A stretch of DNA of 24,000 nucleotides from Candidatus Ornithomonoglobus sp. (GTDB lineage Bacteria; Bacillota; Clostridia; UBA1381), in assembly GCA_045537455.1 (NCBI GenBank), contig JAZSPM010000193.1, forward strand, positions 1 through 24,000, read 5' to 3'. Position 1 is the first letter of the stretch. Every line of letters starts with the position of its first letter. A program made the position numbers and the translations under genes. The notes under the pieces are model-generated. The model ran no database searches. It had not been told where the DNA came from and saw nothing but the letters and a program-made list of their open reading frames with translations. This document shows positions 8,643 through 24,000 of the stretch, in pieces.

Positions 8643-8676
8643 TATGAAAAAGAGTATTATTGAGAGGATTGGTTTT

Positions 8677-9408: not shown

Positions 9409-10669
9409 TTTGTACACATGGGTTTACCTTATAACAAATCTATTTACGCTTGCAATTGTTCATAGGTTTATGGGAGCTTTTTTTGACGAAATAATTAAGC
9501 CTAAATGGCATATAATTATTTCGTATGCGTTGTACTTTGTTTTTACCAGTGCGATGTATCTAATATGGGATATACCCGTACTTGCGATGATAGTCAACTT
9601 AATACTACTCTTTGTTATAACGTTGAATTATAGATCTAGCTTAAGAAAAAAACTTTTTGTTGTAATATTCTTTTATATTTTTATGTTTGTTACTGAAGTT
9701 ATAGTATGTGCGGTGACGGGATATTTCAATTTTCCTATGTTTAATAGTGGTAATTACAATAATTCAACAGGACTGGTAGTAATGAGATTGGTTGCTTATT
9801 TAGAATCTATAGTTTTTTGTAATATAAAGTCTTTAAGGAAAAATGATATTGTTACTATACCACAATGGATAGCAACATTATTTATTCCAATTTCAACTCT
9901 TGTTATGAAAGTACTTGTTGTTGATTCTGAAAATGCTAGTCAGTTTCAAGTAATCTCATCGACAATAATCATATTTTTGATTAATCTTCTTACGTTTTTC
10001 TTATATAATTCTTTATCTAAAAGTTATGCTAAAGAAAAAGTGACTGCACTAATAAGTAAAGAAAAGGAAATGTACTATAATCAATGTCTTCTTATGCAAG
10101 AAACTAATGAGCATTTACAGGGTTTTCGTCATGAAATAAACAATCAATTTATATCGATGAAGGAGTTAATAAATAAACATATGTATAATGAATTAGATGC
10201 TTTTGTTGAGAAACTTACTGAAAAACTTGAAATAGAGAAAATATACAGCAATACAGGGAATGTTGTAGTTGACAGTATAATCAACTACAAGTTAAATCTA
10301 TTAAATAATGCTGATGTTGTAACAGAAATAGCAGTACCATCTTCGTTAGAAGTTGATATAAATGACATGGTTATCATATTAGGTAATATTCTTGATAATG
10401 CGGTTAAGGCACTTAATGAAAATGAAAAGGATTCAAAGTTGTATTTTAAGTTAGTATATAGTCAAGGAAGATTACTCATAAAAGAAACGAATACCTACAA
10501 AACAAGAATATGTTATGAAAACGGTAAAATTCAATCAAGCAAAGCAGATAAAGCCAATCATGGTTTGGGCTTGAAAAATGTAGAGGATGCTGTTAAAAGA
10601 CATGATGGATATATGGAGATAAATCATAATGACAATATTTTTTCAATAGATATCATATTGTTTGTTTAA
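9398..10669 (+). CDS. agrC: AgrC-like membrane sensor histidine kinase (GHKL, HPK10-type)
   Basis: GGAGG at 9385-9389 precedes ATG 9398, and the start overlaps the regulator stop by 11 nt. The N-terminal half has about 6 hydrophobic helices. The H-box is FRHEINNQF, the N-box is LGNILDNAVKA and the G-box is NHGLGLKNVEDAV. Confidence 0.85.
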   Translation: MDFDLYTWVYLITNLFTLAIVHRFMGAFFDEIIKPKWHIIISYALYFVFTSAMYLIWDIPVLAMIVNLILLFVITLNYRSSLRKKLFVVIFFYIFMFVTEVIVCAVTGYFNFPMFNSGNYNNSTGLVVMRLVAYLESIVFCNIKSLRKNDIVTIPQWIATLFIPISTLVMKVLVVDSENASQFQVISSTIIIFLINLLTFFLYNSLSKSYAKEKVTALISKEKEMYYNQCLLMQETNEHLQGFRHEINNQFISMKELINKHMYNELDAFVEKLTEKLEIEKIYSNTGNVVVDSIINYKLNLLNNADVVTEIAVPSSLEVDINDMVIILGNILDNAVKALNENEKDSKLYFKLVYSQGRLLIKETNTYKTRICYENGKIQSSKADKANHGLGLKNVEDAVKRHDGYMEINHNDNIFSIDIILFV

Positions 10670-10683
10670 CAAATAATAGTATA

Positions 10684-10718
10684 ATGCCTTGTAAGTAAAT
10701 TGCTTACAAGGCATTTTT
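10684..10718 (+). terminator. strong intrinsic terminator after the kinase gene
   Basis: atgccttgtaag-taaattg-cttacaaggcat is a perfect 12-bp stem followed by tttt. Confidence 0.8.
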
Positions 10719-10771
10719 ACTGCAAATAACACAGGATTTCACAGCAATCAAAATAAAATACAATTTTTTAA

Positions 10772-10780
10772 TGCTATAAT
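10772..10780 (+). promoter_or_regulatory. extended -10 promoter element upstream of the AgrD-like ORF (activator-dependent type, no good -35)
   Basis: TGcTATAAT lies at 10772-10780. The -35 position (about 10752-10757) reads aataaa, a poor match as in activator-dependent agr promoters. ACAG-type imperfect direct repeats lie upstream at 10731, 10741 and 10760. Confidence 0.5.
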
Positions 10781-10817
10781 AAACCTGCCAAAAAATATAA
10801 AATAAAGGGGTGTTATT

Positions 10818-10961
10818 ATGAGAAAATTTTTAATTAAATTTAGCGGATTATTTGCAGCATTCGCATTATGTGTTACAACTTTAACTGAGAATTCAACTTG
10901 TTTTTTTTGTGCTCATCAGGAAGAAATGCCTGCTAATTCAAAGAAACTCCGTAAATTTTAA
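10818..10961 (+). CDS. agrD: AgrD-like autoinducing-peptide precursor (47 aa; below the ORF-track size cut-off)
   Basis: My translation is MRKFLIKFSGLFAAFALCVTTLTENSTCFFCAHQEEMPANSKKLRKF. It has an amphipathic leader, a Cys-containing core and a charged tail. The tail Pro lies 6 residues after the predicted cleavage point (CFFCA|HQEEMP), the same spacing as S. aureus CDFIM|DEVEVP. The RBS is AAAGGGG at 10804-10810. The stop overlaps the agrB-like start (TAATG at 10959-10963). Confidence 0.75.
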   Translation: MRKFLIKFSGLFAAFALCVTTLTENSTCFFCAHQEEMPANSKKLRKF

Positions 10962-11542
10962 TGTTTAGGGATATTTCATCAAAATTAACAGACAAGCTTA
11001 TAAGCTTAAAAACAATTGATCCAGAAGATAGAGAAATATATGAATTTGGAATACAGCATATTTTTATTACTATTTTTAATATATCTACAGTTCTACTACT
11101 TGGACTTCTGCTAGGTGATCTTAAGGAGGCTATGATTTTTATTTTTGCTTTTATACCATTAAGGATATTTGCAGGAGGTTTCCACTTTAATTCACCAATA
11201 ATGTGCTACATATTTTCTTCATGCTTTGTAGCGGTAGTTCTTTTGGCAATGAGATATTTAAGCATTCCGCTTCTCATTTACTGCTTGCTATATTGCCTGT
11301 CTGGTATTATAATACTGACTTTTGCACCGGTAGAGGATAAGAATAAGCCTTTGGATCAGCTTGAAAAAAAGGTGTACAGGAAAAGAACGATAATTGTATT
11401 TGTTGCAGAAAATATGATTATGTTGTTATTCTGCTCCTTAAAATTCTACATTGCAGCAAAATGTATTATGGTGTCAATAATTGCTTTAGGATTATTAATT
11501 GTTTTAGGCGTAATAAAAAATTATTTGCTAAGCGTCAAATGA
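10961..11542 (+). CDS. agrB: AgrB-like membrane endopeptidase (AIP maturation)
   Basis: 193-aa polytopic membrane protein. The motif PLRIFAGGFHFNSPIMCY has His and Cys 7 residues apart, as for the catalytic H77/C84 pair of S. aureus AgrB. It is translationally coupled to the AgrD-like ORF. Confidence 0.8.
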   Translation: MFRDISSKLTDKLISLKTIDPEDREIYEFGIQHIFITIFNISTVLLLGLLLGDLKEAMIFIFAFIPLRIFAGGFHFNSPIMCYIFSSCFVAVVLLAMRYLSIPLLIYCLLYCLSGIIILTFAPVEDKNKPLDQLEKKVYRKRTIIVFVAENMIMLLFCSLKFYIAAKCIMVSIIALGLLIVLGVIKNYLLSVK

Positions 11543-11547
11543 TTTTT

Positions 11548-11608
11548 ATCAGTATACATTCGTAATTGGTTGTTATGCATACTGGAAAAGGATGTATACT
11601 GATTTTTT
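11548..11608 (+). terminator. long-loop terminator / possible attenuator between agrB-like gene and toxin gene
   Basis: atcagtatacat (11548-11559) pairs perfectly with atgtatactgat (11592-11603), followed by a T-run to 11608. A third near-copy, atgcatactg (11575-11584), in the loop can also pair with the 5' arm with one mismatch. Confidence 0.5.
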
Positions 11609-11647
11609 ACAAGCAAAAATTAAAATTATTTCTAATGGGGAGGGTAT

Positions 11648-11746
11648 ATGAGAAATTTAAATAATCTCAAAAGAGTAGTAAGCGGTGTTCTTAGTGTTAC
11701 TTTGCTGGCTAACTTTGGAACAATATTTCCGATGAATGCATTTGCC
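11648..11746 (+). other. Sec-type signal peptide of the toxin
   Basis: MRNLNNLKRVVSGVLSVTLLANFGTIFPMNAFA|NEE has a basic n-region, a hydrophobic core and an AFA cleavage-type site. Confidence 0.7.
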
Positions 11747-14700
11747 AATGAAGAAATTGAAGAACAAGCAGACTCTATTAATGAAACAACTGGTCACAGG
11801 TACCAATTAATTGATACATCGATGAGTTGGACCGAAGCTGAGGAGTATTGCGAAAGCCTTGGTGGACACCTTGTTACAGTAAATTCAAGCGATGAGCAGC
11901 AGTTCATTGTTGATAATCTGTTAACAATAGGAACAAAAAATGCATACTTTATCGGTATGTACAGAGATGACATTGATAGTGACTGGAAATGGGTAACAAA
12001 CGAATCTACCGAATTTTTTAACTGGGATGAAGGAGAACCAAGCTATACAGATGATAATTATGTGTATATGTATGGTTCAAATTTCAATTCAGGCAGTTGG
12101 AAAAACACGCAGAACTATGTAGAGGATTCAACTGAATTCTCAACAGCTAATATAGGTTATATATGTGAATGGGAAGCTGAAGAATCTGAAGTTGAAGTAG
12201 AGAGAAGAATGAAGAACTACGCTCTTTTTTCAGCAAGCAGTTCAACAGATTTCAGTTATTCTGGCTGGAAAAGTAATATCATAGGCAATATTTATAGTGG
12301 TTCATCTTTTAAATATGGTGGATCAGAGTTCAGCGTTACAGGAAGGGTTGATACCGTAAATTCTATTTCTGCTGATGGCTGGAAGATAGAAATCAATGAA
12401 AGAAATGAAAACATTGCTCCAGTGGAAATGGAAGATTTTGATAAGGTTATTCATGATAACGCACAGCCCTATGATTATTACGAAGAAAATACTGTGTATA
12501 TACAGGATTTGAATGTAATAGATAAGTCGATAAAGATTTCTGGCGACGTTGAAATCGGCGGAACAACTTTTGAAGGTGATTGCTATATTATTGCCGACGG
12601 AAATATTACATATAATGTTAATGATTTCAATTCTACAGGCAGGGTATTCTTATACTCCCAAAACGGAAATATTACTATAAATGGAACAAACGTTAACATA
12701 AACGGAGGCATTTATGCACCTAATGGTAACGTTTCTTTTAATATATACGAAACAAATCTTAATGGTTTTGTATGGGCTGACAGTATAACATATAGTGGCA
12801 GTATTTTTAATGTAACTGCTAATAATTTTGATATGCTTGAACCGAGAAGTGTAGTTAAGACTTATACTATCGATGCCGATTTTAACGAGGGACAGTTCAA
12901 CGGACTTGGCTTGGATGTTTCTGATGAATTGACTTTAACATCTGGCAATAAAGCAGTTGAAACACCTTCTGAAAGAATATATGGCGATTCGGAAACCGGC
13001 AAAGGAGTAAAGGTTACTTATTCAACAGATAAATCTGCTGTCACAGGTGATGGAGATAATGTTACTGTAAAGTACGGACTTGGCGGATTCGGTGAAGCAG
13101 ATGTAACTGAAAATGCAGTTGATCTTATTATTGTAGTTGATGAATCCGGTAGCATGGCCGGAAATCGTATGACAAATACTAAGTCAGCAGCAAAACAGAT
13201 TATTTCACAAATGAAGGAAGTTGATCGTTGTGCGGTTGTTGGATTTACCGGCAGTTCAAATGTAAAACAGAATCTGACATCTGACAAAGATTTGCTTAAT
13301 AAAGCTGTTGATAAACTTTATGCTAGTGGCGGAACTGCGATTTACTCAGGAATTGATAAAGCACTTGCAATGTTTGATGAACAGAGTGAGGATAGTAGAC
13401 AGAAATATATTATTCTTTTATCAGATGGCGAAGACGGATATGAAGCACGTTCTCTTCAATCAGCAACAACTGCTGGCAATAGCGGAATACGAATTTTCTC
13501 AATGAAAATCGGAAGCGGAACTCTTCAGATGCAGAATATTGCTATCAATAGCAATGGAATATATAAGAATGCACCTACAGCAGATGATATTGTTAAAATA
13601 ATGTCATACTTTGCTTCTGAAGTGTTTAACGTAGCAGGAAGAAACACCACATTTAAGACTACTATCAAGGATATAAATTCTGTTGATATTTCTTCTCTTA
13701 GTCCAGAACCCTCAAAAATAATGGAAAACGACGACGGAAGCGTTTCTGTTGAATGGAATTTTGATAGAATAACTATCGATGAAGAAATGGAAATTAATAT
13801 TCCTTTGACTGTAACTGGCGATAATAACGGATTTGTTGACCTTCTTGAAAATACATCATGCGTCTATTACGATAGAAATGGTAAACCAAATGTAATATAT
13901 GCCGAAGATGCATTTTTACCGATAAGCGATTATGTTGATAATGGTAACTGGACAGTTATTTTTGATAGTGAAAGAGAAACTGTTGAGTGGGATAAAATTT
14001 ACTGGAATGGTAACAGATATGGTGATGGTGAAATTTCAGTATATGTTTCTTCCAGTAATGATGGAGAGAATTTCTCAGAGCCTGTCAAGATTGAAAACTT
14101 TGAACAATTCTCTGGCGTGGTAGGCAGATATGCTAAAATTAGTGTAGATATGAAAGTATCTGCTGATGGAAGAACCCCTGAGTTGTATGACATTACAATT
14201 GTATCAAAGGATGCAGTTGTTACAGATTTAGAAAACAATTCCCCTGTCGCAGAGATTGTTTCAAAGAATAATACTAAAGTTAATGTTCCGATGACAGTTA
14301 GAGCTGATCTTGCAGATGATTGCCTGAAATCAAATATAACTGTTTCATGGGACTGCGAAAGTGACAATTTGAAGTTTTCTAGTTCTTCAGAACTAATTAC
14401 ATCTGTAATTTGTTCCGAAACAGGAAGCTATGAAATAATCTGTACTGTAAATGACGGTGAAAAAACTGTTCAAAGTTCAAAAACTATTGTTTGTGAACCG
14501 GCAGATAGCTATGCAAATATTGATCCTGATAATCAGGACGAGGCTGCAGCACCTGAAATCAATGTTGTACTTCCTAAATATGCTGACAGAAAAGAAACCA
14601 TTAACGCACAGATTGAAAAGCTTAATGATACAGAAATTTCCTGGTATTCTGTAATTTTCAATGGTAATACAGCAGTTGATGTAACTGATGATGGAGCATT

Positions 14701-17700
14701 TTCTCTTGTTATGCCTAATAAAGATGGAACCTATAAGGTTGTTGTCAGAGCATTTGATTGGGCTGGTAAGTCTGATGTTAAGGAATATTCTATAATAGTT
14801 GACAGTACTGTAGCTGCTATTGAAATAAAGCCATCTTCTGAGGAAACAACAATCAATTCAGATGCATATTTCAAAGTATCAGTCGCTGCTGCTCATAAAA
14901 TTAAAGAAATTGTTTATACTTTGAACGGAAAGCAGATTGCCATTCCCGAAGATGGCATTTTACCTGTAGATACCAATGTTGAAGCAGAATATGTTCTTGA
15001 AGCTAATGGTATTACTACATCCGGTAAAACGCTTAAAGCTTCTGCAAAGATTACTGTAATTGAAGAAGATTCAGAAAAGCCTGTTGTTAATATCACTTTT
15101 GATAAAAATAGCTATAACGAGAAACAGAATGCTGTTATAACAGTAAAAGCAACTGATAATGTAGGTGTAACTTCACTTGTTGTATTACTTGATGGTAAGG
15201 AAATCGTTCTTGACGGCAATGGACAGTTTTCGATTACAAATATGAAATACGGTGAATACGTTATTACAGCAAATGCTTATGATGAAGCAGACAATAATGG
15301 TAGTGCTACAAAAACATTAACCGTAAAGGATGTAACAAAGCCTACCCTTTCATTAACTGTTGATAAAACGGAAATAGACGTTGGAGAAACAGTTAATATT
15401 TCTGTTGACGCTGCTGATAACAATGGTGTTGTAAATACAGTATTAACTGTAAATGATAAAGAACTGGAACTTTCAGAAGATAACTCTGTATCTTTCAAAC
15501 CTGATACAGCAGGGACATATACTATAAAGGCTGTAGCATCTGATCCTTCTGGAAATAGTCTTACAAAGAAGGTAACTGTCACAGTTAAAGAAGTTGATAC
15601 AATTGCTCCAATTGTTACTATTTCCTTTGATAAGGATACTTATTTTGAAACTGATGATATTGTAATTAATGTTTCCGCAACAGACAATGTTGGAGTAACC
15701 GATATAGCCTTATTAATTGACGGAACTGAAGTTGAACTTAATGCAGAAAATTCATACACTATAAAAAAAGCTGAATTAAAGAATTATACAATCACAGCTA
15801 AAGCTTATGATGAAGAAACCAATGAAGGAACTGCTACTGAAACTGTTGTAGTAAATGAAGCAAAAGCACCAGAGATTAATGTAACATTTGACAAGGACAT
15901 TTACAATGAAGGCGATTCTTTACAGGGTCTTGTAACAGTTCAGGGTCAGAGCGAAATTATCTCTCTTACAGCAAAAGTGAATAATCAGCCTTTAGCACTT
16001 GAAAACGGTATATTTACACTTAGTAATCTTGAAGCAGGTGAATATACATTTACCTTTACTGCTGAAGATGTAAGAGAAAAGACATCAACAATTAATAAAA
16101 CCATTACTGTTATTGATGAAGAACATAAAGCTGATGAGAGATTGTATGCTGTTGTTGATGGTCTTGTTGAGTATGGTAAATCAGCAATGTACAAGGTTAC
16201 AGCCTCAGATGATATTGATAAGTCTACTATTTTAGTAACCTTAAACGGTGAAAAAATTGAACTGACGGATGAATATACATACGAATTTAAGGGCGAAAAA
16301 CTTTTTACAAATGAATTCATTTTAACAGCAGAAACTGTTGATGGTGAAATTCTTACTGTTAAAAATTCAGTGCTGGTTTACGAAACTGAAAAACCAACTG
16401 TTACAGTAGTTCTTAATAAAGACAAGGATATTCAGGAACATGATGATATTGTAATAACAATAACTGCAGAAGATATTTCCGGAATAAGAAAAATCCAGTG
16501 CTTATATGATGGCGTAGAAATTCCTCTTGATGAAAACGGACAGATGTTCATCAATGATTTTGAAGTAAGACCTCATTCGGTTGTTATAAGAGCATGGGAT
16601 AATTTCGGTAACCTCAGATCATATCTCCTTTCATTCTATGTAGTAGAAACAGAAGTATCAGGCGGTGGTTCTGTTTCTGTTGGTGGCAATACAGAAGATA
16701 CAGAGTCCAAAACATTGATTGCGGATATTTATACACCAATTAATGAAGATGTCATTTCTTGTCCTTCGTATATTTTCGGTCGTGCAGACGGTACAGAATT
16801 TGAAAAATACAGATTGGAATACCAGTCAGCAGCAGGTGGAGATTATGTTCTTATCAGCGAAGGAACAGAAAAAGTAAATAATGGTTCTTTAGGTGAATTT
16901 GATACAACTATGCTCCGAAACGGACTTTATAACATCAAGCTTACTGTATGGGGTAAGAACGGTGAAGTAACCTCTGATGAAATTATTGTTTCTGTTGAAG
17001 GTGAGATGAAAATCGGTAACTTCTCACTTGATTTTCAAGATATGGATCTCAATGTAGCTGGAGCTCCGGTTACAGTAATAAGGGGCTATGACAGCCGTGA
17101 CAGAAACATAAGCGGAGATTTTGGCTATGGTTGGAATCTCTCTACCTGCGGTGTAACTGTTACAAAGAGCTGTGACCTTAGTCGTAATTGGGATATGCAG
17201 CAAAAAGGATATAATATTTCTTACACCCCCACAAAACCTCATATTATATCAGTTAACTGGGGTAATGGCAAAGTTGAGAAATTTGTAATGGAAGCTAAAA
17301 GTGATGGTGCATCAACATTGAAAACAGCTTCATTCACTTTCAAGTCAATGGATGGAAGTAACTCTAAACTTTTCCCAAATATTACAACTGGAGCATGGAT
17401 TTATGAAAACGGGTATTTCTTTAAGTTAGATGAAGAGTGGGATGATATACCTTTTAATCCGGATGTATGGCAATTAAATAAAGCTGATGGTACAAAGTAC
17501 CTTATTAGCTGTACAAATGGAATTTTAGCTTTTGCTGATGCAAATGGAAATCAGATTAAATTTAATAAGGATGGAATTGAAAACTCTGATGGTGAAGAAA
17601 TTTCAATTATTCGTGACAGTAATGACAGAATTACAAGCATTTCATCTCCAACAGGTAAAACAGTTTCATATGAATATGATGAAAATGGAGATCTTGTAAA

Positions 17701-20700
17701 GGTTATTGATATTTCAGGATATGAAACAACCTTTGAATATGATAATCATTATCTTACTGCTATTATCGATCCCAGAGGTGTAACAGTATCAAGAAATATT
17801 TATGATGATAACGGCAGACTTATCAAAACAATTGATGCAGACGGAAATGAAATCGTTTACGACCATGACATTGACGGTCGTGAAGAAACCATTACCGACC
17901 GCAATGGTGGAATTACAAGATACGTTTATGACCATAACGGAAATGTGACTTCACAGACCGATCCAATGGGCAATACTGTAAAGAATACCTACGACAGTAA
18001 TGGTAATCTTTCATCAAAAACTGATGCTATGGGCAATGTAACCAATTACAGTTATGATGATAACGGCAATATGCTTGGAATGACAGATGCCGAGGGAAAT
18101 ACTGTTACAAATGAGTATAACTCCAAAGGCTTTATTACATCAATTAATGCTATGGGCATTGATATTATGAGCGTTACATATGACGAAAAAGGCAATACTT
18201 CATCAACTATTGACGCTCTGGGTAATGAAATTAATTACAGCTATGACAGCAAGGGTAATCTTGAGTCTGTTACTGATGAAATAGGTACATATATGAATAT
18301 GACCTATGACAGCAAGGGAAATGTAATTTCTGCAACAAACGGTGCTGGTACAACGGCTGAATTTACGTATGACAGCGACGGAAACTGTCTTTCTAAAACG
18401 CTTACATATACATCGGGCGAAGTGACAAAGACCGTCACAGAAAATTATACATATGATGAATCTGGAAATCTCGTTAAAATTATTGATAGCGATGGAAATA
18501 TTACAACAACAGAATATAACAGCATTGGTAAAATTTCTGTTGCTACAGATGAAAAGGGCAGACAGACCTTATATGATTATGACAGTCTTGGAAATGTTAT
18601 AAAGATTACCTATGCCGACGGCACTTCTGAATCCTTTACATATGACCGTGAGGGTAATAATCTGACAGCAACAGATAGACTTGGCAGAACAGTTACAATG
18701 AAATACGACAAGGTTGGAAACCTTATCAGCAAAACCTATCCAAATGGTGCAGCTGTAAAGTATACATACGATGCAAATTATAATCTTACATCAACCATAA
18801 GTGCAAGCGGCAATGAAACCAAGTATGAATATGATGCAATTGGCAGAAATACCGTAATCATTGACGCACTTGGAAATCACACAGAATTCACATATAACTC
18901 TCATTCTCAGCTTAGCAGTATGACCGATGCGAACGGAAATGTGTATACCTATACCTATGATGATAATGGTAACAGAACAGCTACCACATATCCTGACGGT
19001 TCAAGTGTTTCTTCCGCATATGATGCAAGAGGCCGTGTAATAAGTCAGACTGATCAGCATGGATATACAACTTCATATACATATGACGGTGCTGACCGAC
19101 TTACAAGCGTTACTGACGCACTCAGCAATGTGACAAGCTATACTTATAACGAAGTTGGAAATCTTATTAAAGTAACCGATGCAAATAATCATTCTACACT
19201 TTACACTTACGATGATTTCAGCAGAGTAATTAAAACAACAAATGCACTTGGCCAAACAGCTGAGGTTACATATGATATCTGCGGAAATGTTCTGACATCA
19301 ACAGATTTCGGAGGAAAGCTTACTTCATTCACATATGATGAGTTTGATAGGGTTATCGAAAAGAAAACTGCTGACGGTACAGTAACATATTCCTATACAA
19401 CAGACGGAAAGCTTTCATCCGTTACAGACAAGACAGGTACTACAAAGTATACTTATGACAGCATGGATGGGCTCAAAAAAGCAGTATATCCTAATGGCGA
19501 ATATGTTGAATACACCTATGATGATGCAAGCAGACTGACAGGAGTAAAAACTTCTTACGGCACAACATCCTATGAATATGATAAGCTTGACAGACTTGTA
19601 AGAGTTGTAGACAGAAACGGATATGCTACAGTATATGAATATGACAAAAATGGTAACAGGTCAGCTGTAAGATATGCCAACGGAATTGTAATAACTTACA
19701 AATATGACGAGGTAAACCGACTTATATGCGAAAAAGCCCTTGACAAACAAGGTGGAATTGTGGCACAATATGAATATACCCTTGGTGCAGCAGGAGAGCG
19801 AACAGCAGTCAAGGAACTTGACCGTACAGTAGAGTACACATATGATGCGCTTTACAGACTGACAAGCGAAAAGATAACTGCGGCTGACGAAACTGTAACA
19901 GAGTATACATACGCTTATGATAATGTAAGCAACCGTATCTTGAAAACCGAAAATGGTGCTAAAACAGTCTATACCTACAATGCTCTCAATCAGCTTGTAA
20001 AGGAAAATGACGCTGTTTACAAGTATGACGATGCAGGAAATCTTATTTCCACAACATCGGCAGATAAGTCAGCTACATATACTTACAATGCTGAAAATAA
20101 GCTGATTCGTGCTACTGTTCAGGAGGGCAATAATGTTTCTGTTGAGGAATATGAGTATGACTATGCAGGAAACAGAATCGTAAAGAAGTCTGAAAACGAC
20201 TATACTTATTATCTGAATGACATAAGCGGAAGTCTTACACAGGTTCTTGCAGAGCTTGATGCGGACGGAAATGAAAAGTGCTGGTACACAAGAGGAATTG
20301 AAATTATTTCTCAGGAGCGTAACGGTGATGTTTCATACTACCTTACAGACGGTCATGGTTCAGTAAGACAGCTTTCTGATTCTACTTGTGCAATAACGGA
20401 TACTTATGTATATGACGCATGGGGCAATTTGATTTCATCAACTGGCAATACTGAAAATAGCTATCTCTACTGCGGCGAACAGCTTGACAGCACAACAGGT
20501 CTTTATTATCTCCGTGCGAGATATATGAACCCCACAACAGGTACGTTTATCTCAATGGATACGTATCAGGGTACAATTTTCGACCCGACTTCTCTGCATA
20601 AGTATCTTTATGCTAATGCGAATCCTGTGATGAATGTTGATCCGAGTGGATATTTCACACTTGCAGAAGTAAATGTTTCAGGTGCTATAAACAATATTCT

Positions 20701-21841
20701 TGATAATTCAGCTACTCTGAATTATATGAGAATTTATCAAAATCTGAAGAGTAAACTTAATGCAATAAACAACATTCTTACACTTTACGATACAGCAAGA
20801 CAGATTGCAATGATAATCAACGATCCTGAATTGTCAGGCTGGCAGATGGTTGAAGGAATTGCATGCGGAGTTATTACCGGTTTGTTTATGAACCGTATGT
20901 GCCAGATGAAAGCAATAGGACCGATTATCAGTAAGGTGTTGACGGGATATGGTCTGGCAACGCAATGGCAAAGCATAATGGATGCTGCCAAAAACAAAGA
21001 CTGGGATTTGGTCGGCACACGTTCTATACAGCTCATACTCTCGCTTATGTCACTGCATCAGAATTGCTTTACAGGTGAAACCCTTGTTGCGGCAGAAAAC
21101 GGACAGAAGCGAATTGATGAAATTGAAGTCGGTGACAAGGTATGGGCGTATGACATCTTTACAGGTGAAACAGCACTCAAGGAAGTTACAAAGGTTTATG
21201 TCCATGAAGTAGATGAGATACTGCACCTGTACACTTCATGCGGAGATATCGACACAACAACAAATCATCCGTTCTATGTTATTGAGCGTGGTTGGGTAGC
21301 GGCTGGCGACCTTGTTGAAGGTGATGAAATCTATCTTCTTGACGGGTCAACTGCTGTTATAACCGGTTCTGAACTTGAACAGCTTTCTGAAACGATTAAG
21401 GTTTATAACCTTGAGGTTGCGGATTTCAATACCTACTTTGTTGGCGATAATGCTGTTCTGGTGCATAACTATGATCGTAAGCCAAGATCGCCAAAATCAA
21501 ACGTTGATAGTGTTGATGTTCAAGATGGTAAAATTACTTATACTAAAACGAGTCCGGACAATGGTCAACAATACAGTGTTACATACAACGAGGATGGATT
21601 CCCTGATTTTTCCCCCTATCGTTATAGTGGAAATGACGGTAAAGGATTAGTGAAGATTGACTATTCTGGAGATAGATACACTGATTTTAATTTTGCAAAT
21701 CAGGCGGCTGGATTCCCAAGTACTCCAGACGGTTATACTTGGCATCATTTAGAAGATATGTCATCTATGGAACTGGTACTTACTGTTGTCCATAAACTGT
21801 TTCCACATACAGGTGGATTTGCGCTATTTAATAATCCTTAA
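11648..21841 (+). CDS. giant secreted RHS/YD-repeat polymorphic toxin (3397 aa): C-type lectin, vWA, Ig-like array, RHS shell, pre-toxin HINT, WHH nuclease
   Basis: Uninterrupted 10.2-kb ORF with GGGGAGGG at 11637-11644 before ATG 11648. The domains are listed separately below. All antisense ORFs inside it are short shadows. Confidence 0.95.
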   Translation: MRNLNNLKRVVSGVLSVTLLANFGTIFPMNAFANEEIEEQADSINETTGHRYQLIDTSMSWTEAEEYCESLGGHLVTVNSSDEQQFIVDNLLTIGTKNAYFIGMYRDDIDSDWKWVTNESTEFFNWDEGEPSYTDDNYVYMYGSNFNSGSWKNTQNYVEDSTEFSTANIGYICEWEAEESEVEVERRMKNYALFSASSSTDFSYSGWKSNIIGNIYSGSSFKYGGSEFSVTGRVDTVNSISADGWKIEINERNENIAPVEMEDFDKVIHDNAQPYDYYEENTVYIQDLNVIDKSIKISGDVEIGGTTFEGDCYIIADGNITYNVNDFNSTGRVFLYSQNGNITINGTNVNINGGIYAPNGNVSFNIYETNLNGFVWADSITYSGSIFNVTANNFDMLEPRSVVKTYTIDADFNEGQFNGLGLDVSDELTLTSGNKAVETPSERIYGDSETGKGVKVTYSTDKSAVTGDGDNVTVKYGLGGFGEADVTENAVDLIIVVDESGSMAGNRMTNTKSAAKQIISQMKEVDRCAVVGFTGSSNVKQNLTSDKDLLNKAVDKLYASGGTAIYSGIDKALAMFDEQSEDSRQKYIILLSDGEDGYEARSLQSATTAGNSGIRIFSMKIGSGTLQMQNIAINSNGIYKNAPTADDIVKIMSYFASEVFNVAGRNTTFKTTIKDINSVDISSLSPEPSKIMENDDGSVSVEWNFDRITIDEEMEINIPLTVTGDNNGFVDLLENTSCVYYDRNGKPNVIYAEDAFLPISDYVDNGNWTVIFDSERETVEWDKIYWNGNRYGDGEISVYVSSSNDGENFSEPVKIENFEQFSGVVGRYAKISVDMKVSADGRTPELYDITIVSKDAVVTDLENNSPVAEIVSKNNTKVNVPMTVRADLADDCLKSNITVSWDCESDNLKFSSSSELITSVICSETGSYEIICTVNDGEKTVQSSKTIVCEPADSYANIDPDNQDEAAAPEINVVLPKYADRKETINAQIEKLNDTEISWYSVIFNGNTAVDVTDDGAFSLVMPNKDGTYKVVVRAFDWAGKSDVKEYSIIVDSTVAAIEIKPSSEETTINSDAYFKVSVAAAHKIKEIVYTLNGKQIAIPEDGILPVDTNVEAEYVLEANGITTSGKTLKASAKITVIEEDSEKPVVNITFDKNSYNEKQNAVITVKATDNVGVTSLVVLLDGKEIVLDGNGQFSITNMKYGEYVITANAYDEADNNGSATKTLTVKDVTKPTLSLTVDKTEIDVGETVNISVDAADNNGVVNTVLTVNDKELELSEDNSVSFKPDTAGTYTIKAVASDPSGNSLTKKVTVTVKEVDTIAPIVTISFDKDTYFETDDIVINVSATDNVGVTDIALLIDGTEVELNAENSYTIKKAELKNYTITAKAYDEETNEGTATETVVVNEAKAPEINVTFDKDIYNEGDSLQGLVTVQGQSEIISLTAKVNNQPLALENGIFTLSNLEAGEYTFTFTAEDVREKTSTINKTITVIDEEHKADERLYAVVDGLVEYGKSAMYKVTASDDIDKSTILVTLNGEKIELTDEYTYEFKGEKLFTNEFILTAETVDGEILTVKNSVLVYETEKPTVTVVLNKDKDIQEHDDIVITITAEDISGIRKIQCLYDGVEIPLDENGQMFINDFEVRPHSVVIRAWDNFGNLRSYLLSFYVVETEVSGGGSVSVGGNTEDTESKTLIADIYTPINEDVISCPSYIFGRADGTEFEKYRLEYQSAAGGDYVLISEGTEKVNNGSLGEFDTTMLRNGLYNIKLTVWGKNGEVTSDEIIVSVEGEMKIGNFSLDFQDMDLNVAGAPVTVIRGYDSRDRNISGDFGYGWNLSTCGVTVTKSCDLSRNWDMQQKGYNISYTPTKPHIISVNWGNGKVEKFVMEAKSDGASTLKTASFTFKSMDGSNSKLFPNITTGAWIYENGYFFKLDEEWDDIPFNPDVWQLNKADGTKYLISCTNGILAFADANGNQIKFNKDGIENSDGEEISIIRDSNDRITSISSPTGKTVSYEYDENGDLVKVIDISGYETTFEYDNHYLTAIIDPRGVTVSRNIYDDNGRLIKTIDADGNEIVYDHDIDGREETITDRNGGITRYVYDHNGNVTSQTDPMGNTVKNTYDSNGNLSSKTDAMGNVTNYSYDDNGNMLGMTDAEGNTVTNEYNSKGFITSINAMGIDIMSVTYDEKGNTSSTIDALGNEINYSYDSKGNLESVTDEIGTYMNMTYDSKGNVISATNGAGTTAEFTYDSDGNCLSKTLTYTSGEVTKTVTENYTYDESGNLVKIIDSDGNITTTEYNSIGKISVATDEKGRQTLYDYDSLGNVIKITYADGTSESFTYDREGNNLTATDRLGRTVTMKYDKVGNLISKTYPNGAAVKYTYDANYNLTSTISASGNETKYEYDAIGRNTVIIDALGNHTEFTYNSHSQLSSMTDANGNVYTYTYDDNGNRTATTYPDGSSVSSAYDARGRVISQTDQHGYTTSYTYDGADRLTSVTDALSNVTSYTYNEVGNLIKVTDANNHSTLYTYDDFSRVIKTTNALGQTAEVTYDICGNVLTSTDFGGKLTSFTYDEFDRVIEKKTADGTVTYSYTTDGKLSSVTDKTGTTKYTYDSMDGLKKAVYPNGEYVEYTYDDASRLTGVKTSYGTTSYEYDKLDRLVRVVDRNGYATVYEYDKNGNRSAVRYANGIVITYKYDEVNRLICEKALDKQGGIVAQYEYTLGAAGERTAVKELDRTVEYTYDALYRLTSEKITAADETVTEYTYAYDNVSNRILKTENGAKTVYTYNALNQLVKENDAVYKYDDAGNLISTTSADKSATYTYNAENKLIRATVQEGNNVSVEEYEYDYAGNRIVKKSENDYTYYLNDISGSLTQVLAELDADGNEKCWYTRGIEIISQERNGDVSYYLTDGHGSVRQLSDSTCAITDTYVYDAWGNLISSTGNTENSYLYCGEQLDSTTGLYYLRARYMNPTTGTFISMDTYQGTIFDPTSLHKYLYANANPVMNVDPSGYFTLAEVNVSGAINNILDNSATLNYMRIYQNLKSKLNAINNILTLYDTARQIAMIINDPELSGWQMVEGIACGVITGLFMNRMCQMKAIGPIISKVLTGYGLATQWQSIMDAAKNKDWDLVGTRSIQLILSLMSLHQNCFTGETLVAAENGQKRIDEIEVGDKVWAYDIFTGETALKEVTKVYVHEVDEILHLYTSCGDIDTTTNHPFYVIERGWVAAGDLVEGDEIYLLDGSTAVITGSELEQLSETIKVYNLEVADFNTYFVGDNAVLVHNYDRKPRSPKSNVDSVDVQDGKITYTKTSPDNGQQYSVTYNEDGFPDFSPYRYSGNDGKGLVKIDYSGDRYTDFNFANQAAGFPSTPDGYTWHHLEDMSSMELVLTVVHKLFPHTGGFALFNNP
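11795..12175 (+). other. C-type lectin-like domain (CTLD)
   Basis: HRYQLIDTSMSWTEAEEYCESLGGHLVTVNSSDEQQFI...YFIGMYRD..DWKWVTNESTEFFNWDEGEPS...GSWKNTQN...GYICEWE. This matches the classic CTLD Cys, WxW and W..GEP pattern. Confidence 0.75.
12200..12840 (+). other. Asn/Gly-rich predicted beta-helix/solenoid segment
   Basis: Periodic short repeats such as GDVEIGGTTFEGDCYIIADGNITYNV, GRVFLYSQNGNITINGTNVNINGGIYAPNGNVSFNI, NGFVWADSITYSGSIFNV. The fold is inferred from periodicity only. Confidence 0.4.
13121..13630 (+). other. von Willebrand factor A (vWA) domain with MIDAS motif
   Basis: DLIIVVDESGSMAG (the DxSxS motif), then ASGGTAIYSGIDKAL, then YIILLSDGEDG. Confidence 0.8.
14234..16645 (+). repeat. 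array of about 9 tandem Ig-like/PKD/cadherin-like beta-sandwich modules (85-95 aa each)
   Basis: Module starts and ends recur. Examples are KPVVNITFDKNSYNEKQNAVITVKATDNVGVTSLVVLLDGKEI...TLTVKD, APIVTISFDKDTYFETDDIVINVSATDNVGVTDIALLIDGTEV...TVVVNE and KPTVTVVLNKDKD...ITITAEDISGIRKIQCLYDGVEI. The repeats are divergent at the DNA level. Confidence 0.7.
17598..20200 (+). repeat. RHS/YD-repeat shell region
   Basis: Dozens of units of the form G..t.Y.YD..GNl.s.tD..Gn.t, for example TVSYEYDENGDLVKVID, TRYVYDHNGNVTSQTDPMGNT, YTYTYDDNGNRTATTYPDGS. They are preceded by the usual FGYGWNLS entry motif (near nt 17120). Confidence 0.9.
20225..20650 (+). other. RHS repeat-associated core domain with autoproteolysis motif
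   Basis: YYLTDGHGSVRQLSD...YVYDAWGN...YCGEQLDSTTGLYYLRARYMNPTTGTFISMDTY...LHKYLYANANPVMNVDPSGY. The P-x-x-x-x-DP-x-G motif lies at nt 20624-20650. Confidence 0.85.
20651..21064 (+). other. helical/hydrophobic pre-toxin linker (PT-TG-like)
   Basis: A segment of about 137 aa between the RHS core and HINT. It has hydrophobic stretches and TG dipeptides (GIACGVITGLFMNRM, ISKVLTGYGLATQW). The family assignment is tentative. Confidence 0.35.
21065..21469 (+). other. pre-toxin HINT (Hedgehog/intein-like) autoprocessing domain
   Basis: It starts with CFTGETLVAAENG (Cys-1 at nt 21065), has the block B-like TTTNHPFYV, and ends with FVGDNAVLVHN (Asn at 21467-21469). The +1 residue is Tyr, so it would cleave but not splice. 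Confidence 0.85.
21296..21472 (+). repeat. HINT 3' homology block, resident copy (recombination handle)
   Basis: gtagcggctggcgaccttgttgaaggtgatgaaatctatcttcttgac...attaaggtttataaccttgaggttgcggatttcaatacctactttgttggcgat...gtgcataactat has near-identical partial copies at 22931-23041 and 23716-23820. Confidence 0.85.
21470..21838 (+). other. C-terminal WHH-type HNH/EndoVII-fold nuclease toxin domain
   Basis: DFNFANQAAGFPSTPDGYTWHHLEDMSSMELVLTVVHKLFPHTGGFALF. The WHH triplet lies at nt 21740-21748 and is followed by the H...H-x-GG signature. Confidence 0.75.
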
Positions 21842-21860
21842 ATCTGATACAAAAACTACT

Positions 21861-21897
21861 ATAAGGAGAGATAATAAATTAATATATCTCTCCTTAT
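21861..21897 (+). other. 13-bp perfect hairpin between toxin and immunity genes (no U-tract)
   Basis: ataaggagagata-(11 nt)-tatctctccttat is followed by gaaaatt, so it is not a canonical terminator on the + strand. Confidence 0.5.
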
Positions 21898-21929
21898 GAA
21901 AATTAAAAGATTAATATAATGGAGGAATA

Positions 21930-22853
21930 ATGGAAGATTTTTTAAAATGGATAAAAAACACGTTTGATACTAACTTGCCAAATGATTATCTGCAATTTTT
22001 GTTATCTTATGATGAAAGTAGTGTTGTAGGAAAAGTTTTTCAGTTTTTTGAAAATGAAAAATTAACCTCAACTGATATTCATTATTTTTTTAAAATAGGA
22101 AAAAACAAAATGAATTGTATCGAATGGAATTATAATAATTATTTATCAGAGGATATAATTCCAGCATTTTTCCTACCTATAGCGGAAGATAGTGGAGGCA
22201 ATCTTATTTGTTTAAGCATGGATGTTGAGAATTACTCTCGCATATATTTTGTTTTACATGATAGCTTTGAAATGACATATTTTTTTGTAGCTAATAGTTT
22301 TTCAGAATGGTGTTCAAAGATGTATTCTCAACAGATAAATAGGCAAAATGATGAAAGTAATACTATCTATACATTTAAAAAATATGGTAGCGGGATTTAT
22401 TCAAATGGCATCACCAAAGATAGTTCCAATGTAGATGTATCGGAGTTTTCCTACAGTACTATTGACGAATTTATGGCTAGAGAAAAAATAGATTTTCCAC
22501 TTTTGTTGTACAACTTTTACAGTTCAACAGACGGAATAGAAATCAATAGAAAAATTGAGTTTATTTGCAAAAAAACAAAATTTTCTGTAGAAATATCAAC
22601 TGTTTTGCCTTTTGATGAGGCTGAAAAGAAATATTATAAAATGGCTAAGTCTGAACCTAAAATGGCAGATTATTTCCCTATTGCTATATCATCCAATATA
22701 AATTTTATAGCATTGCTAAAAGTACGTAAAAAAAATAAGGGAAAAATATATTTTTGGAACGCGTTCAACAGAGATATCGTTGAGGCATATGATTCAGCAG
22801 ATGATTTTTTGGGTGAACTAGGTATTGAACCTCATTCTCTTGATGAATCTTAA
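21930..22853 (+). CDS. tandem SMI1/KNR4 (SUKH) domain immunity protein, presumed cognate to the WHH toxin
   Basis: GGAGGAA precedes ATG 21930. Domain 1 reads LPNDYLQFLLSYDES...IAEDSGGNLICLSMD...FVANSFSEWCSKM. Domain 2 reads IDFPLLLYNFYSSTDG...FPIAISSNINFIALL...IYFWNAF...AYDSADDFLGEL. It lies directly 3' of the toxin gene. Confidence 0.8.
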   Translation: MEDFLKWIKNTFDTNLPNDYLQFLLSYDESSVVGKVFQFFENEKLTSTDIHYFFKIGKNKMNCIEWNYNNYLSEDIIPAFFLPIAEDSGGNLICLSMDVENYSRIYFVLHDSFEMTYFFVANSFSEWCSKMYSQQINRQNDESNTIYTFKKYGSGIYSNGITKDSSNVDVSEFSYSTIDEFMAREKIDFPLLLYNFYSSTDGIEINRKIEFICKKTKFSVEISTVLPFDEAEKKYYKMAKSEPKMADYFPIAISSNINFIALLKVRKKNKGKIYFWNAFNRDIVEAYDSADDFLGELGIEPHSLDES

Positions 22854-22906
22854 CTTTACTAATTAGTAAGAAGATTAATTAACCTAAAATAACCAATTAG
22901 CTTTTC

Positions 22907-23359
22907 TTGTTGACAGTTCAACCGATCGTAACAGGTGCAGAACTTGAAAAGCTTACTGAGCCAATTAAGGTTTATAACCTTGAGGTTGAGGATTTCAATA
23001 CCTACTTTGTTGGTGATGAAGCTGTTTTGGTGCATAATTATCTTGATAAAAGTGATCATGCAAAGCATAGGCAGGCTGAAGGAAGAAATGTAGGTACTGC
23101 TGGACACGATTTGAATAATGCGAGACCTTCGGATGTTTACATTCAAAATAATGATGGTCGCTATGTACTTAAGGGAAATAATGGGAGAGTTCATATATTT
23201 GAACCAGATGGAGAACTTGTAACAACAATGAATAAAGTTACCAATTTCTCAAAACGAGTATCAAGTGGAAGATATTCTCCATTAAGTCTTAAACAAATAT
23301 CAGAATTTATAGAAATCTTTGGCGAATTTTTAAATAAGAATTGGAATGGATACAGATAA
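22907..23359 (+). CDS. orphan toxin cassette: HINT C-terminal fragment fused to an alternative, unassigned toxin domain (no credible start or RBS of its own)
   Basis: The frame opens right after TAG 22898-22900. Residues VTGAELEKLTEPIKVYNLEVEDFNTYFVGDEAVLVHNY match the resident ITGSELEQLSETIKVYNLEVADFNTYFVGDNAVLVHNY. The sequence then diverges into LDKSDHAKHRQAEGRNV...DGRYVLKGNNGRVHIFEPDGELVTTM (105 aa). Confidence 0.75.
   Translation: MLTVQPIVTGAELEKLTEPIKVYNLEVEDFNTYFVGDEAVLVHNYLDKSDHAKHRQAEGRNVGTAGHDLNNARPSDVYIQNNDGRYVLKGNNGRVHIFEPDGELVTTMNKVTNFSKRVSSGRYSPLSLKQISEFIEIFGEFLNKNWNGYR
22931..23041 (+). repeat. HINT 3' homology block, orphan copy 1
   Basis: aaggtttataaccttgaggttgAggatttcaatacctactttgttggTgatGAAgctgttTtggtgcataaTtat differs from the resident 21398-21472 at only a few positions. 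Confidence 0.85.
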
Positions 23360-23670
23360 TGAAGAAGTCTAATTTATCATATTTGGAAAAAATATATCGA
23401 CGATATATAGAAGATGTTGCTATGGAAATATCTATAGATAAAAAGTTTAGGGATAGATTATTAAATGCTTCATATGGGGAACAACTGGAAATATCTCAAA
23501 AAACGGCAAGCCACTGCAAGTATTTAAACCATATCCTATCAAAAGGACTTGTATTTGTAGTTGAAAAGGTTTACGAGTGTACAGAAACATTTGATAAGGA
23601 CTTAACAATTTTTAAATTTTCTGCAAAAGATTTTCCTAACATCATAAGATATACTGGTAATAATATTTAG
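23359..23670 (+). CDS. small hypothetical protein, presumed immunity partner of the orphan toxin cassette
   Basis: ATG 23359 overlaps the cassette stop (TAATG at 23357-23361), the same coupling as agrD/agrB. The product is 103 aa (MKKSNLSYLEKIYRRYIEDVAMEIS...). I recognise no family. The role is inferred from position. Confidence 0.6.
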   Translation: MKKSNLSYLEKIYRRYIEDVAMEISIDKKFRDRLLNASYGEQLEISQKTASHCKYLNHILSKGLVFVVEKVYECTETFDKDLTIFKFSAKDFPNIIRYTGNNI

Positions 23671-23691
23671 CAATTTTCCTGTTCAGCGAAA

Positions 23692-23844: not shown

Positions 23845-23857
23845 TTTAATATGTATT

Positions 23858-23894
23858 ATCCTGACTAAGACATTGTTCTTGGTCAGGATTTTTT
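23858..23894 (+). terminator. intrinsic terminator closing the toxin/cassette locus
   Basis: atcctgactaag-acattgtt-cttggtcaggat forms a 12-bp stem with one G-U pair, followed by ttttt. Confidence 0.75.
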
Positions 23895-24000
23895 ATGCCC
23901 TTTTTTATGCTATGATGTTGAGTGATATGTAGAAATTTTTATCAAGTAGATGATACGTATTGAAAAAATACAGTGTAAACTTCAAAATTTGACAAGTTCT

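Follow-up and report, generated by a model that had tools for sequence, protein, structure and literature searches.

WapA of Bacillus subtilis is a wall-associated RHS toxin that acts in contact-dependent inhibition among Gram-positive bacteria and carries CWB2 wall-binding repeats. Beyond WapA, it is poorly understood how Sec-exported RHS toxins of Gram-positive bacteria are retained and how they find their targets, and the protein family described here may help in this respect. We analysed a 24,000-nt stretch of DNA from Candidatus Ornithomonoglobus sp. (hereafter, the window), in which a single uninterrupted open reading frame (ORF) at positions 11648-21841 of the plus strand encodes a putative toxin of 3397 amino acids (aa). 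As in WapA, a Sec signal and an N-terminal surface region are followed by an RHS shell with its core and by a polymorphic C-terminal nuclease-type toxin, with an immunity gene directly downstream. Unlike WapA, the window toxin has no CWB2 repeats; it has a C-type lectin-like domain (CTLD), a DUF7305 β-solenoid, a von Willebrand factor A (vWA) domain, about 10 Ig modules and a PT-HINT domain before the toxin. It is also about 1000 aa longer and is linked to an agr cassette and a mobile element. By analogy, the window toxin may work like WapA, but we do not class it as WapA.

The tail of the protein finds a textbook match in the Sec-exported RHS-HINT-nuclease toxins that are accompanied by SUKH proteins (Zhang, Iyer and Aravind 2011, PMC3113570; Zhang et al. 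2012, PMC3482391). The shared features are RHS, HINT just before the toxin, a Tox-WHH nuclease of the HNH fold, Imm-SUKH and orphan cassettes. The original prediction for this locus, made from the sequence without database searches, had regarded the RHS-HINT-nuclease tail as established polymorphic-toxin architecture, and both papers bear this out: the tail is of an already known kind. The head is a different matter. N-terminal carbohydrate-binding and adhesion domains are a recognised feature of polymorphic toxins, and those given in PMC3482391 are LysM, discoidin, LamG, RicinB, bulb lectin, PGB, CWB and SH3. In the text of that paper the word "lectin" occurs twice only (one passage concerns bulb lectin) and "vWA" never, whereas the window head carries both a CTLD and a vWA domain. 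No description of this head, or of such RHS proteins in Ruminococcus, was found in the literature searched. Within that literature the head is a previously undescribed combination that follows the known modular principle of N-terminal adhesion or anchoring and is common in one lineage. The earlier description of it as unusual is therefore apt with respect to the PMC3482391 list, but not with respect to its own lineage, in which it is a conserved, typical module present at 32 loci, also in proteins without RHS.

The reading that we favour, with a probability of roughly 45%, is that of a polymorphic RHS toxin, exported through Sec, with which Gram-positive gut or rumen bacteria of the Ruminococcus/Oscillospiraceae type compete and whose head tethers it to the envelope of the producer. 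The toxin would be exported N-terminus first, and the head would bind a bacterial surface ligand non-covalently: a glycan and/or an acidic protein ligand engaged through the metal-ion-dependent adhesion site (MIDAS) of the vWA domain. The bound surface would most probably be the producer's own envelope, the head replacing the CWB2 wall-binding repeats of Bacillus WapA, and the Ig stalk would keep the RHS capsule tens of nanometres off the cell. If, as is probable, the CTLD of the window copy no longer binds sugar in the canonical calcium-dependent way, attachment would fall to the solenoid, to the vWA domain or to some non-canonical surface of the CTLD. Upon contact with a neighbour, cleavages by the RHS core protease and by HINT would free the WHH nuclease, which would enter the target and degrade its DNA. 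The SUKH protein would shield sibling cells, and homology at the 3′ end of HINT would let new toxin tips recombine in. That the RHS shell encloses the C-terminal region, that autoproteolysis frees the nuclease and that neighbours without the SUKH protein are killed is taken from knowledge of these families (PMC3113570, PMC3482391).

The toxin consists of the following segments (Pfam matches in the toxin are above gathering cut-offs unless called sub-threshold):

11648-11746, plus strand: Sec-type signal peptide, aa 1-33, predicted cleavage after AFA33 (sequence features)
11795-12175, plus strand: C-type lectin-like domain, aa 50-176 (Pfam Lectin_C, PDB sequence matches, motif comparison over 22 family members)
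12206-12847, plus strand: DUF7305 region, predicted β-solenoid, aa ~187-400, ~215 aa (sub-threshold Pfam, AlphaFold2, Foldseek)
12848-13114, plus strand: small β-rich connector before vWA, aa 401-489, kept in the family, no family match
13115-13627, plus strand: vWA domain with intact MIDAS (Pfam VWA, structure-based alignment)
13628-14227, plus strand: two β-sandwich domains after vWA, aa 661-860, ~200 aa, strongly conserved (AlphaFold2, Foldseek)
14228-16657, plus strand: Ig-like stalk, aa 861-1670, one PKD and eight Big_7/Y_Y_Y-type modules with an 88-aa period
16745-17647, plus strand: last Ig-like module and N-terminal part of the RHS shell, aa 1700-2000, 36-75% identity in relatives
17648-20650, plus strand: RHS/YD-repeat shell and RHS-associated core (core aa 2922-3001), ending in ...NVDPSGY3002
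20651-21055, plus strand: pre-HINT linker, aa 3002-3136, 130 aa, helical and partly hydrophobic
21056-21469, plus strand: PT-HINT autoproteolytic domain, C3140 ... H3273-N3274 (Pfam PT-HINT)
21470-21841, plus strand: Tox-WHH (HNH/EndoVII) nuclease tip, W3365-H-H3367, H3382, H3387xG

The N-terminal head and its possible ligands

In the predicted signal peptide, which is kept in relatives, a basic n-region is followed by a hydrophobic core (aa 9-32) and an AFA-N motif (aa 31-34). The original prediction had seen no LPXTG, S-layer or choline-binding anchor, and our scans agree. LPXTG was absent from the 3397-aa toxin in a motif scan, a sequence scan of the same protein detected no hydrophobic segment besides the signal peptide, and Pfam, NCBIfam and motif scans revealed no CWB2, SLH, LysM, SH3 or choline-binding domain, that is, no wall anchor of the WapA type. 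We favour tethering because the head follows the signal peptide directly and a long stalk separates it from the warhead, and because the head is the constant part across different trunks and tips and the sole candidate anchor in the protein. In PMC3482391, SH3, LamG, inactive transglutaminase and MAFB-N, the domains conserved at the N-terminus of polymorphic toxins exported through Sec, are interpreted as producer-cell anchors.

All the parts named in the original prediction (Sec signal, CTLD, vWA, Ig stalk, RHS, HINT, WHH and a downstream SUKH protein) were recovered. The profile search that it had proposed, run here with Pfam, placed both adhesion domains above cut-off: Lectin_C with 51 bits (PF00059, aa 58-154, E 2.8e-13, cut-off 22.6) and VWA with 66 bits (aa 492-646). 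Overlooked at that stage were the DUF7305 β-solenoid, the two β-sandwiches, the orphan cassettes, the agr cassette, the integrase and the MobL relaxase.

Among PDB sequences, the CTLD matched solely animal CTLDs, such as those of PLA2R, DEC-205, MRC2 and CLEC4, with single-CTLD chains matching down to E 2.8e-12 and multi-CTLD receptors scoring lower still. The window copy displays the fold signatures YFIGM and WKW and the Cys pair C68-C173. Canonical long-form CTLDs have two conserved disulfides, C1-C4 and C2-C3; the second (inner) pair is absent from the window CTLD and from every family member. In carbohydrate-recognition domains of the mannose-binding-protein type, the principal calcium/sugar site is made up of EPN or QPD, a downstream Glu and WND. 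At the corresponding positions the window CTLD has E130-P-S132, D136 and W151-K-N153; in other words, EPS, Asp136 and WKN take the place of the residues needed for calcium-dependent sugar binding, with three of the five canonical ligands lost and a fourth altered. With a single Cys pair, the window domain is a member of the CTLD fold, not a fully canonical one, and, judged by its ligand residues, it has probably lost canonical calcium-dependent sugar binding. Its earlier designation as a canonical CTLD thus stands for the fold signatures and the profile match, but not for the second disulfide or the EPN/Glu/WND ligands. Similarly, of the "glycan- and metal-dependent" adhesion proposed for the head, glycan dependence is doubtful in the window protein because most of the calcium/sugar ligands are lost or altered, whereas the MIDAS is intact and metal-dependent attachment through it is plausible.

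Across the 22 CTLDs of the family, the sugar-site tripeptide is EPN in 16, QPD in two and another sequence in four; the downstream ligand is Glu in most of them, and the last motif is mostly WNN, WND or WDD. By these motifs, the CTLDs of many relatives look sugar-competent, and the family looks to toggle the classical mannose-type/galactose-type switch. Diversification of the CTLD by a diversity-generating retroelement was considered and dropped, as no reverse transcriptase was present among the scanned ORFs of the window. A search for direct, not inverted, template-like repeats of the CTLD DNA in 6900-24000 found none.

The animal-type matches bring up the alternative that the head is an adhesin for host or substrate surfaces (mucus, epithelial matrix, plant fibre or rumen eukaryotes), serving colonisation or an attack on eukaryotic cells. 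CTLDs and vWA domains with a MIDAS are classical modules for binding extracellular matrix and glycans, and every one of the closest solved CTLDs comes from an animal protein. The solenoid model bears a weak likeness to the C-terminal domains of the tapirins, a group of adhesins that bind cellulose, and chromosomal relatives of the toxin lie among cellulosome (dockerin) genes. However, the tapirin match is poor (Foldseek TM-score 0.17-0.19), Pfam found no dockerin in the toxin itself, and the dedicated SUKH gene together with the orphan cassettes is a hallmark of kin-directed bacterial conflict. In addition, a search of the protein collection showed that PF00059 CTLDs are common in proteins of the same bacteria, where they occur alongside dockerins, CBMs and proteases. 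Therefore, a "eukaryote-like" CTLD need not mean a eukaryotic ligand: in Ruminococcus-group bacteria, CTLDs of this type are an ordinary building block and not a sign of host mimicry. We consider this alternative very unlikely. Targeting to host surfaces or mucus, which the original prediction had entertained, gained no specific support, the immunity gene and the orphan cassettes indicating bacterial targets.

Next to the CTLD, the DUF7305 region scored 22 bits with the Pfam profile in the window and 22.8 bits in the related locus L001, both below the 27-bit cut-off, and 27.6 bits in L002 (related loci are labelled L001-L033). Its AlphaFold2 model, built with 18 family sequences as input, is all-β with a pLDDT of about 90. 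According to Foldseek, the model has weak matches to the β-solenoid fold of ice-binding (DUF3494) proteins, with PDB entry 6eio at E 1.4e-3 (TM-score 0.50 on the target) and a DUF3494 protein of BFVD at E 1.8e-4; a likeness to the ComZ pilin solenoid was also seen. On the strength of the model we call the region a β-solenoid. A profile of the region retrieved nothing meaningful from PDB sequences, and DUF7305 is not mentioned anywhere in the literature searched. Elsewhere (proteins P0014, P0016, P0021, P0024-P0027 and P0030), DUF7305 was observed together with CBM2, legume-type lectin domains, TSP3-like repeats and subtilase; it comes after CBM2 in some proteins and before legume-lectin-type domains in others. 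Large secreted proteins of these bacteria thus seem to use the solenoid as a general building block.

The connector that follows (aa 401-489) was modelled by AlphaFold2 with low confidence (pLDDT below 50). The original prediction had credited the vWA domain with an intact DxSxS motif; in fact, the full set of predicted metal ligands is present (D498, S500, S502, T563 and D593), in register with DKSGS / GGT / TDGED of the CLCA1 VWA domain and also with BatA-like structures. DxSxS and D593 are invariant in nine family sequences. In the post-vWA sandwiches, W768, D773, W781 and W786 are invariant in the family, and the second sandwich was modelled by AlphaFold2 with a pLDDT of 80-90. The sandwiches were suspected to be a discoidin/CBM-like sugar binder, but Pfam gave sub-threshold matches only (Cbm74, SusE) and Foldseek returned generic Ig-like folds only, so we assign them to no specific family.

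How widely is the head distributed? Its first 900 residues have homologues of 46-75% identity in the protein collection, none of them identical; the best identity is 67% in GTDB representatives and 66% in the protein collection (75% over a partial alignment). When one genome was scanned for each species, 32 loci were recovered, nearly all of them from Ruminococcus, R. flavefaciens or Oscillospiraceae and mostly from metagenome-assembled genomes of gut or rumen origin, with one isolate, R. flavefaciens ND2009 (L012). An exhaustive, profile-free comparison of aa 178-860 with 1.84 billion cluster representatives produced 107 clusters (defined at 50% identity) at E <= 1e-30. Many of these match the DUF7305 or vWA part only; in about ten the head core is complete, the proteins being 2000-3100 aa long. 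Segment-wise tblastn showed that the order CTLD, DUF7305, vWA, sandwiches, Ig and RHS, sometimes followed by linker-HINT, recurs in relatives, and seven loci (L003, L004, L006, L012, L016, L017 and L030) encode it in intact single ORFs of 3103-3584 aa, with another module in place of the CTLD in L017 and L030. We also considered a two-protein system, as the gene is split in L001 (1118 + 1401+ aa) and L002 (1063 + 1447+ aa), and rejected it in view of the seven intact loci. The break in L001 is a single in-frame stop (6619-6790) spanned by one tblastn segment, and that in L002 is a frame change (13192-13293); both lie inside the Ig stalk and may be pseudogenes or assembly errors in this repetitive part.

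Identity to the window protein differs from domain to domain: 55-87% for the RHS shell (68-87% for full-length shells), 50-82% for vWA, 41-75% for DUF7305 and 29-63% for the CTLD. At one locus (L005) the CTLD is 34% and the vWA domain 82% identical. At four others (L013, L017, L030 and L032) the CTLD is swapped for unrelated modules of ~400 aa, for which Pfam and PDB yielded nothing more than a DUF11-like sandwich, and vWA is absent from L029 and L031-L033. At the opposite end, the C-termini are unrelated between loci after ...DPSGY or after HINT, the WHH tip being found among the examined loci in the window and L023 only. On these comparisons, the per-domain identities show mosaic evolution, with the CTLD as the most swappable part of the head.

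Such a pattern is what one might expect if the head were a target-recognition device, as the original prediction proposed. The toxin would then be shed or loosely held, and the head of CTLD, solenoid and vWA domain would bind a specific glycan or protein receptor on neighbours and thereby set the target range, like the receptor-binding domains of colicins and CdiA or like lectin-like bacteriocins. The CTLD is the most divergent domain of a mosaic head, its sugar-specificity tripeptide toggles, some relatives have unrelated modules in its place, and DUF7305 pairs with CBM2 or legume-lectin-type domains. Moreover, the element is mobile between species, which is easier if its function is independent of producer surface chemistry. 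Lectin-guided killing has a precedent in the LlpA bacteriocins, whose lectin domains set killing specificity (PMC3585409). In Tc toxins (TcA plus the TcB-TcC RHS cocoon), an RHS capsule encloses the toxin, which is delivered after glycan-dependent surface binding (PMC7861375). Both LlpA and the Tc toxins offer a functional analogy only, and neither shows a sequence relationship to the window head. LlpA is built of MMBL lectin domains and is devoid of an RHS shell or enzymatic tip; the Tc toxins are three-component systems with eukaryotic targets and a pentameric TcA injector. Against target recognition, the head lies about 10 Ig modules away from the warhead, so that the RHS capsule would sit tens of nanometres from the target surface; the calcium/sugar ligands of the window CTLD are degenerate; and the constant N-terminal region of known polymorphic toxins serves export or anchoring (PMC3482391). 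On balance, we hold target recognition to be somewhat unlikely.

Producer tethering, our preferred reading, faces difficulties of its own. Where the protein sits on the surface, how it is cleaved, what its nuclease does and how it is regulated are all deductions, and, as no known wall-binding module was detected in the protein, tethering is argued by analogy only. The N-terminal-most domain is also the most variable and exchangeable one, whether in identity (29-63%), in motif (EPN, QPD and others) or through the ~400-aa replacements, which would fit equally well with receptor-binding domains diversifying against target surfaces. Finally, the model offers no route for the nuclease across a Gram-positive envelope.

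The constancy of the head across trunks is best seen in a sister subfamily of four loci (L014, L015, L023 and L025), whose shorter proteins (2286-2789 aa) have the same head and stalk and no RHS repeats. Their heads comprise a signal peptide, Lectin_C, the DUF7305 region, vWA and PKD/Ig modules, with 38-56% identity to the window head domains. The trunk contains a Transglut_core-like domain (aa ~1590-1717) and has no PT-HINT match; the C-terminal tip is TNT in L014 and WHH/Colicin-DNase in L023. On this evidence, the head is independent of RHS. A modular head conserved in about 30 Ruminococcus-group species, including cultured R. flavefaciens, has a lectin tip, a solenoid and a MIDAS that can be mutated or swapped, and natural variants are at hand: EPN versus QPD tips, heads with or without vWA, and RHS versus transglutaminase-like trunks.

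Stalk, shell, toxic tail and immunity

Pfam matches in the stalk are PKD, Big_7 (four times), Y_Y_Y and Big_13. The PKD module (aa ~877-947) has a fold match to the PKD domain of ColG (Foldseek, TM-score 0.85), and the eight modules with the 88-aa period start at aa 982, 1070, 1158, 1246, 1334, 1421, 1511 and 1597. The self-profile that revealed this period drifted into the RHS repeats after four iterations, and only its eight periodic matches (aa 982-1656) were used. One more Ig-like module lies at aa 1724-1777. Together, Pfam and the self-profile periodicity give a total of about 10 modules, close to the "about 9" originally estimated. At the place equivalent to the N-terminal part of the RHS shell, L001 has DUF6531.

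The repeat array is of shell length, with 20 stretches of Pfam RHS_repeat (423 bits) and 13 stretches of NCBIfam TIGR01643 YD repeats (319 bits), and the core was detected by TIGR03696 (Rhs_assc_core, 63 bits, aa 2922-3001). It contains motifs of the predicted autoprotease type (R2956...D2971 and D2998-P-S-G-Y). No Pfam family matches the pre-HINT linker, which keeps 72-84% identity in L003, L004 and L006; the L017 version is the more hydrophobic one. The linker is conceivably a relative of the "two-TM plus HINT" pretoxin region that PMC3113570 mentions for Firmicutes, and may be a membrane-entry element. The PT-HINT domain (Pfam, aa 3147-3274, 89 bits) has both the N-terminal Cys (C3140) and the C-terminal H3273-N3274, and it stands directly before the toxin, in agreement with the rule given in PMC3113570. 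The tip matches WHH (aa 3358-3394, 47 bits) and Colicin-DNase (45 bits). It possesses the catalytic motifs W3365-H-H, H3382 and H3387-T-G of a predicted nuclease, consistent with the Tox-WHH motif definition in PMC3482391.

Downstream of the toxin gene lie:

21930-22853, plus strand: tandem SUKH-1 (SMI1/KNR4) protein, candidate cognate immunity protein (Pfam SMI1_KNR4, 81 bits, two stretches)
22907-23670, plus strand: orphan cassette, a HINT 3′ fragment fused to a ~105-aa tip (22907-23359) and an overlapping ORF
23692-23844, plus strand: second HINT-fragment remnant, an orphan stub (DNA 23719-23820 is 84% identical to 21302-21403)

The pairing of WHH toxins with SUKH proteins is documented in PMC3113570. 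In the orphan cassette, the HINT fragment corresponds to PT-HINT positions 100-136 (Pfam), and the DNA at 22929-23041 is 88% identical to that at 21360-21472. The small ORF overlapping the orphan tip (23341-23670, 109 aa) is a putative immunity gene; neither it nor the tip has a family match. As judged from their similarity to the HINT 3′ end, the orphan repeats are a classical substrate for toxin-tip switching. A variable tip, an adjacent immunity gene and orphan cassettes, the marks of a polymorphic toxin, are thus all found at the window locus.

The upstream agr cassette and its mobile-element context

The toxin gene is immediately preceded by a complete agr cassette, in which AgrB, an AgrD precursor, an AgrC-like kinase and a LytTR regulator are present in one locus:

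8614-9408, plus strand: LytTR response regulator (Pfam Response_reg and LytTR)
9383-10669, plus strand: AgrC-like multi-pass GHKL histidine kinase (Pfam HATPase_c_5)
10683-10716: terminator hairpin after the kinase gene, -23.7 kcal/mol, z -6.7
10818-10961, plus strand: AgrD-like precursor, 47 aa, small ORF, ...NSTCFFCAHQEEMP...
10961-11542, plus strand: AgrB (Pfam AgrB, 147 bits)
11548-11603, plus strand: hairpin and U-run between the agrB stop and the toxin ribosome-binding site, -20.1 kcal/mol, z -4.5

The cassette has AgrB, an AgrD-like precursor, a GHKL kinase, a LytTR regulator and polymorphic rings in common with staphylococcal and clostridial agr. It differs from them in gene order (regulator and kinase, terminator, then agrD-agrB) and in the adjacent output gene, which is a giant polymorphic toxin and not RNAIII. 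In the window precursor, a Cys lies five residues before the conserved HQ..P tail. AgrD-like peptides were recovered in nine related loci and vary in their ring residues: the window ring is CFFCA, and relatives have CNYIM, CVYCV, CAWWH and CLWWI. In three relatives AgrD is of the Ser type instead of the Cys type. The variation of the ring between loci resembles pherotypes.

In the window and at 14 related loci (L001, L002, L005, L006, L008, L009, L011, L013, L015, L016, L017, L024, L025 and L030), the gene next upstream of the toxin belongs to a whole or partial agr cassette that runs in the same direction. The linked toxins include both the RHS type and the transglutaminase type, the latter in L015 and L025. 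At 12 loci the end of agrB is separated from the toxin start by 15-540 bp on the same strand, and in L024 agrB overlaps the start by 28 nt. In the window, some 45 nt lie between the hairpin and the toxin ATG, which leaves no room for a promoter after the hairpin. The hairpin occurs at the same place in five of six loci, the window included. In the window, L001, L005, L015 and L016 it was seen to have a long stem, with the structure conserved and the sequence not, and a U-run in three of them.

From adjacency, the hairpin and the lack of promoter space, we conclude that toxin expression is probably coupled to the upstream agr cassette. The arrangement points to read-through or attenuated co-transcription of the toxin from the agrD promoter, and the hairpin, acting as a leaky terminator or an attenuator, may fix how strongly the toxin is expressed in relation to agrDB. 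Between the kinase terminator and agrD (window 10700-10800) there are imperfect direct repeats ~21 bp apart. Such ~21-bp-spaced repeats before the agrD promoter resemble the boxes of LytTR regulators. Similar repeats were noted upstream of agrD in L005, L015, L016 and L024, for example ACCATTTGACGTAAA / ACCATTTAGCGTAAA in L016.

Two points tell against such coupling. Together with its U-run, the hairpin might act as a full terminator, and agr is absent from eight informative loci, including the chromosomal copies of L003 and L012 among cellulosome (dockerin) genes, so it is not obligatory. These same points suggest another explanation: agr may be a fellow passenger on the mobile element, with the intergenic hairpin a true terminator and the toxin promoter inside the 3′ end of agrB. 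A sigma-70-like match does exist inside agrB (11285-11313), in a number of such matches equal to chance expectation. On the other hand, the close and co-directional placement of agrB before toxins of both subfamilies and the ~45 nt left before the ATG speak against a mere passenger; the only cargo seen in the low-GC segment is the integrase, agr, toxin and immunity genes; and agr type partly tracks toxin lineage, Ser-type AgrD being found with one signal-peptide type only. We regard the passenger explanation as rather doubtful.

Nothing in the literature searched links autoinducing-peptide systems genetically to polymorphic RHS toxins, and recurrent coupling of agr and toxin on a mobile element is the most interesting extra of this locus. 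The frequency of the cassette suggests density-dependent use of polymorphic toxins in fibre-degrading gut and rumen communities. A bolder and unlikely proposal is that integrase, agr, toxin and immunity genes form a self-contained mobile "recognise and kill" module, in which a pherotype peptide would switch the weapon on only at high kin density, the exchangeable lectin tip would pick the surface glycan and the recombining C-terminus would set the mode of killing. If true, a Sec-exported RHS polymorphic toxin would for the first time be seen hard-wired to peptide quorum sensing, and bacteria would be using the animal-type EPN/QPD sugar-specificity switch to tune interbacterial targeting.

Further upstream, two genes define the mobile context:

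4689-7118, plus strand: MobL relaxase with Sel1 repeats (Pfam)
7330-8442, plus strand: tyrosine integrase (Pfam)

The remainder of the upstream part (1-4624) contains a weak TraG P-loop match, DUF6103 and a second SUKH-1 gene on the minus strand (4250-4624). A search inside the window for direct repeats of the att type on either side of the low-GC island found none, and the first 8.5 kb of the window had no close plasmid match. The order MobL, integrase, agr and toxin is also present in L006 and L016, where the integrase is 81-82% identical, and GC content falls from ~0.45 to ~0.30 near position 7000. The recurrence of this order and the drop in GC content therefore indicate that the toxin block is mobile-element cargo; by its sequence surroundings, it appears to be inserted beside, or to be part of, a conjugative or mobilisable element. 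When L015 was compared with the window, the integrase (68%), response regulator (65%), histidine kinase (58%) and AgrB (54%) all exceeded the similarity of the head (50% for DUF7305). From these identities, the integrase-agr platform and the toxin seem to have been reshuffled relative to each other.

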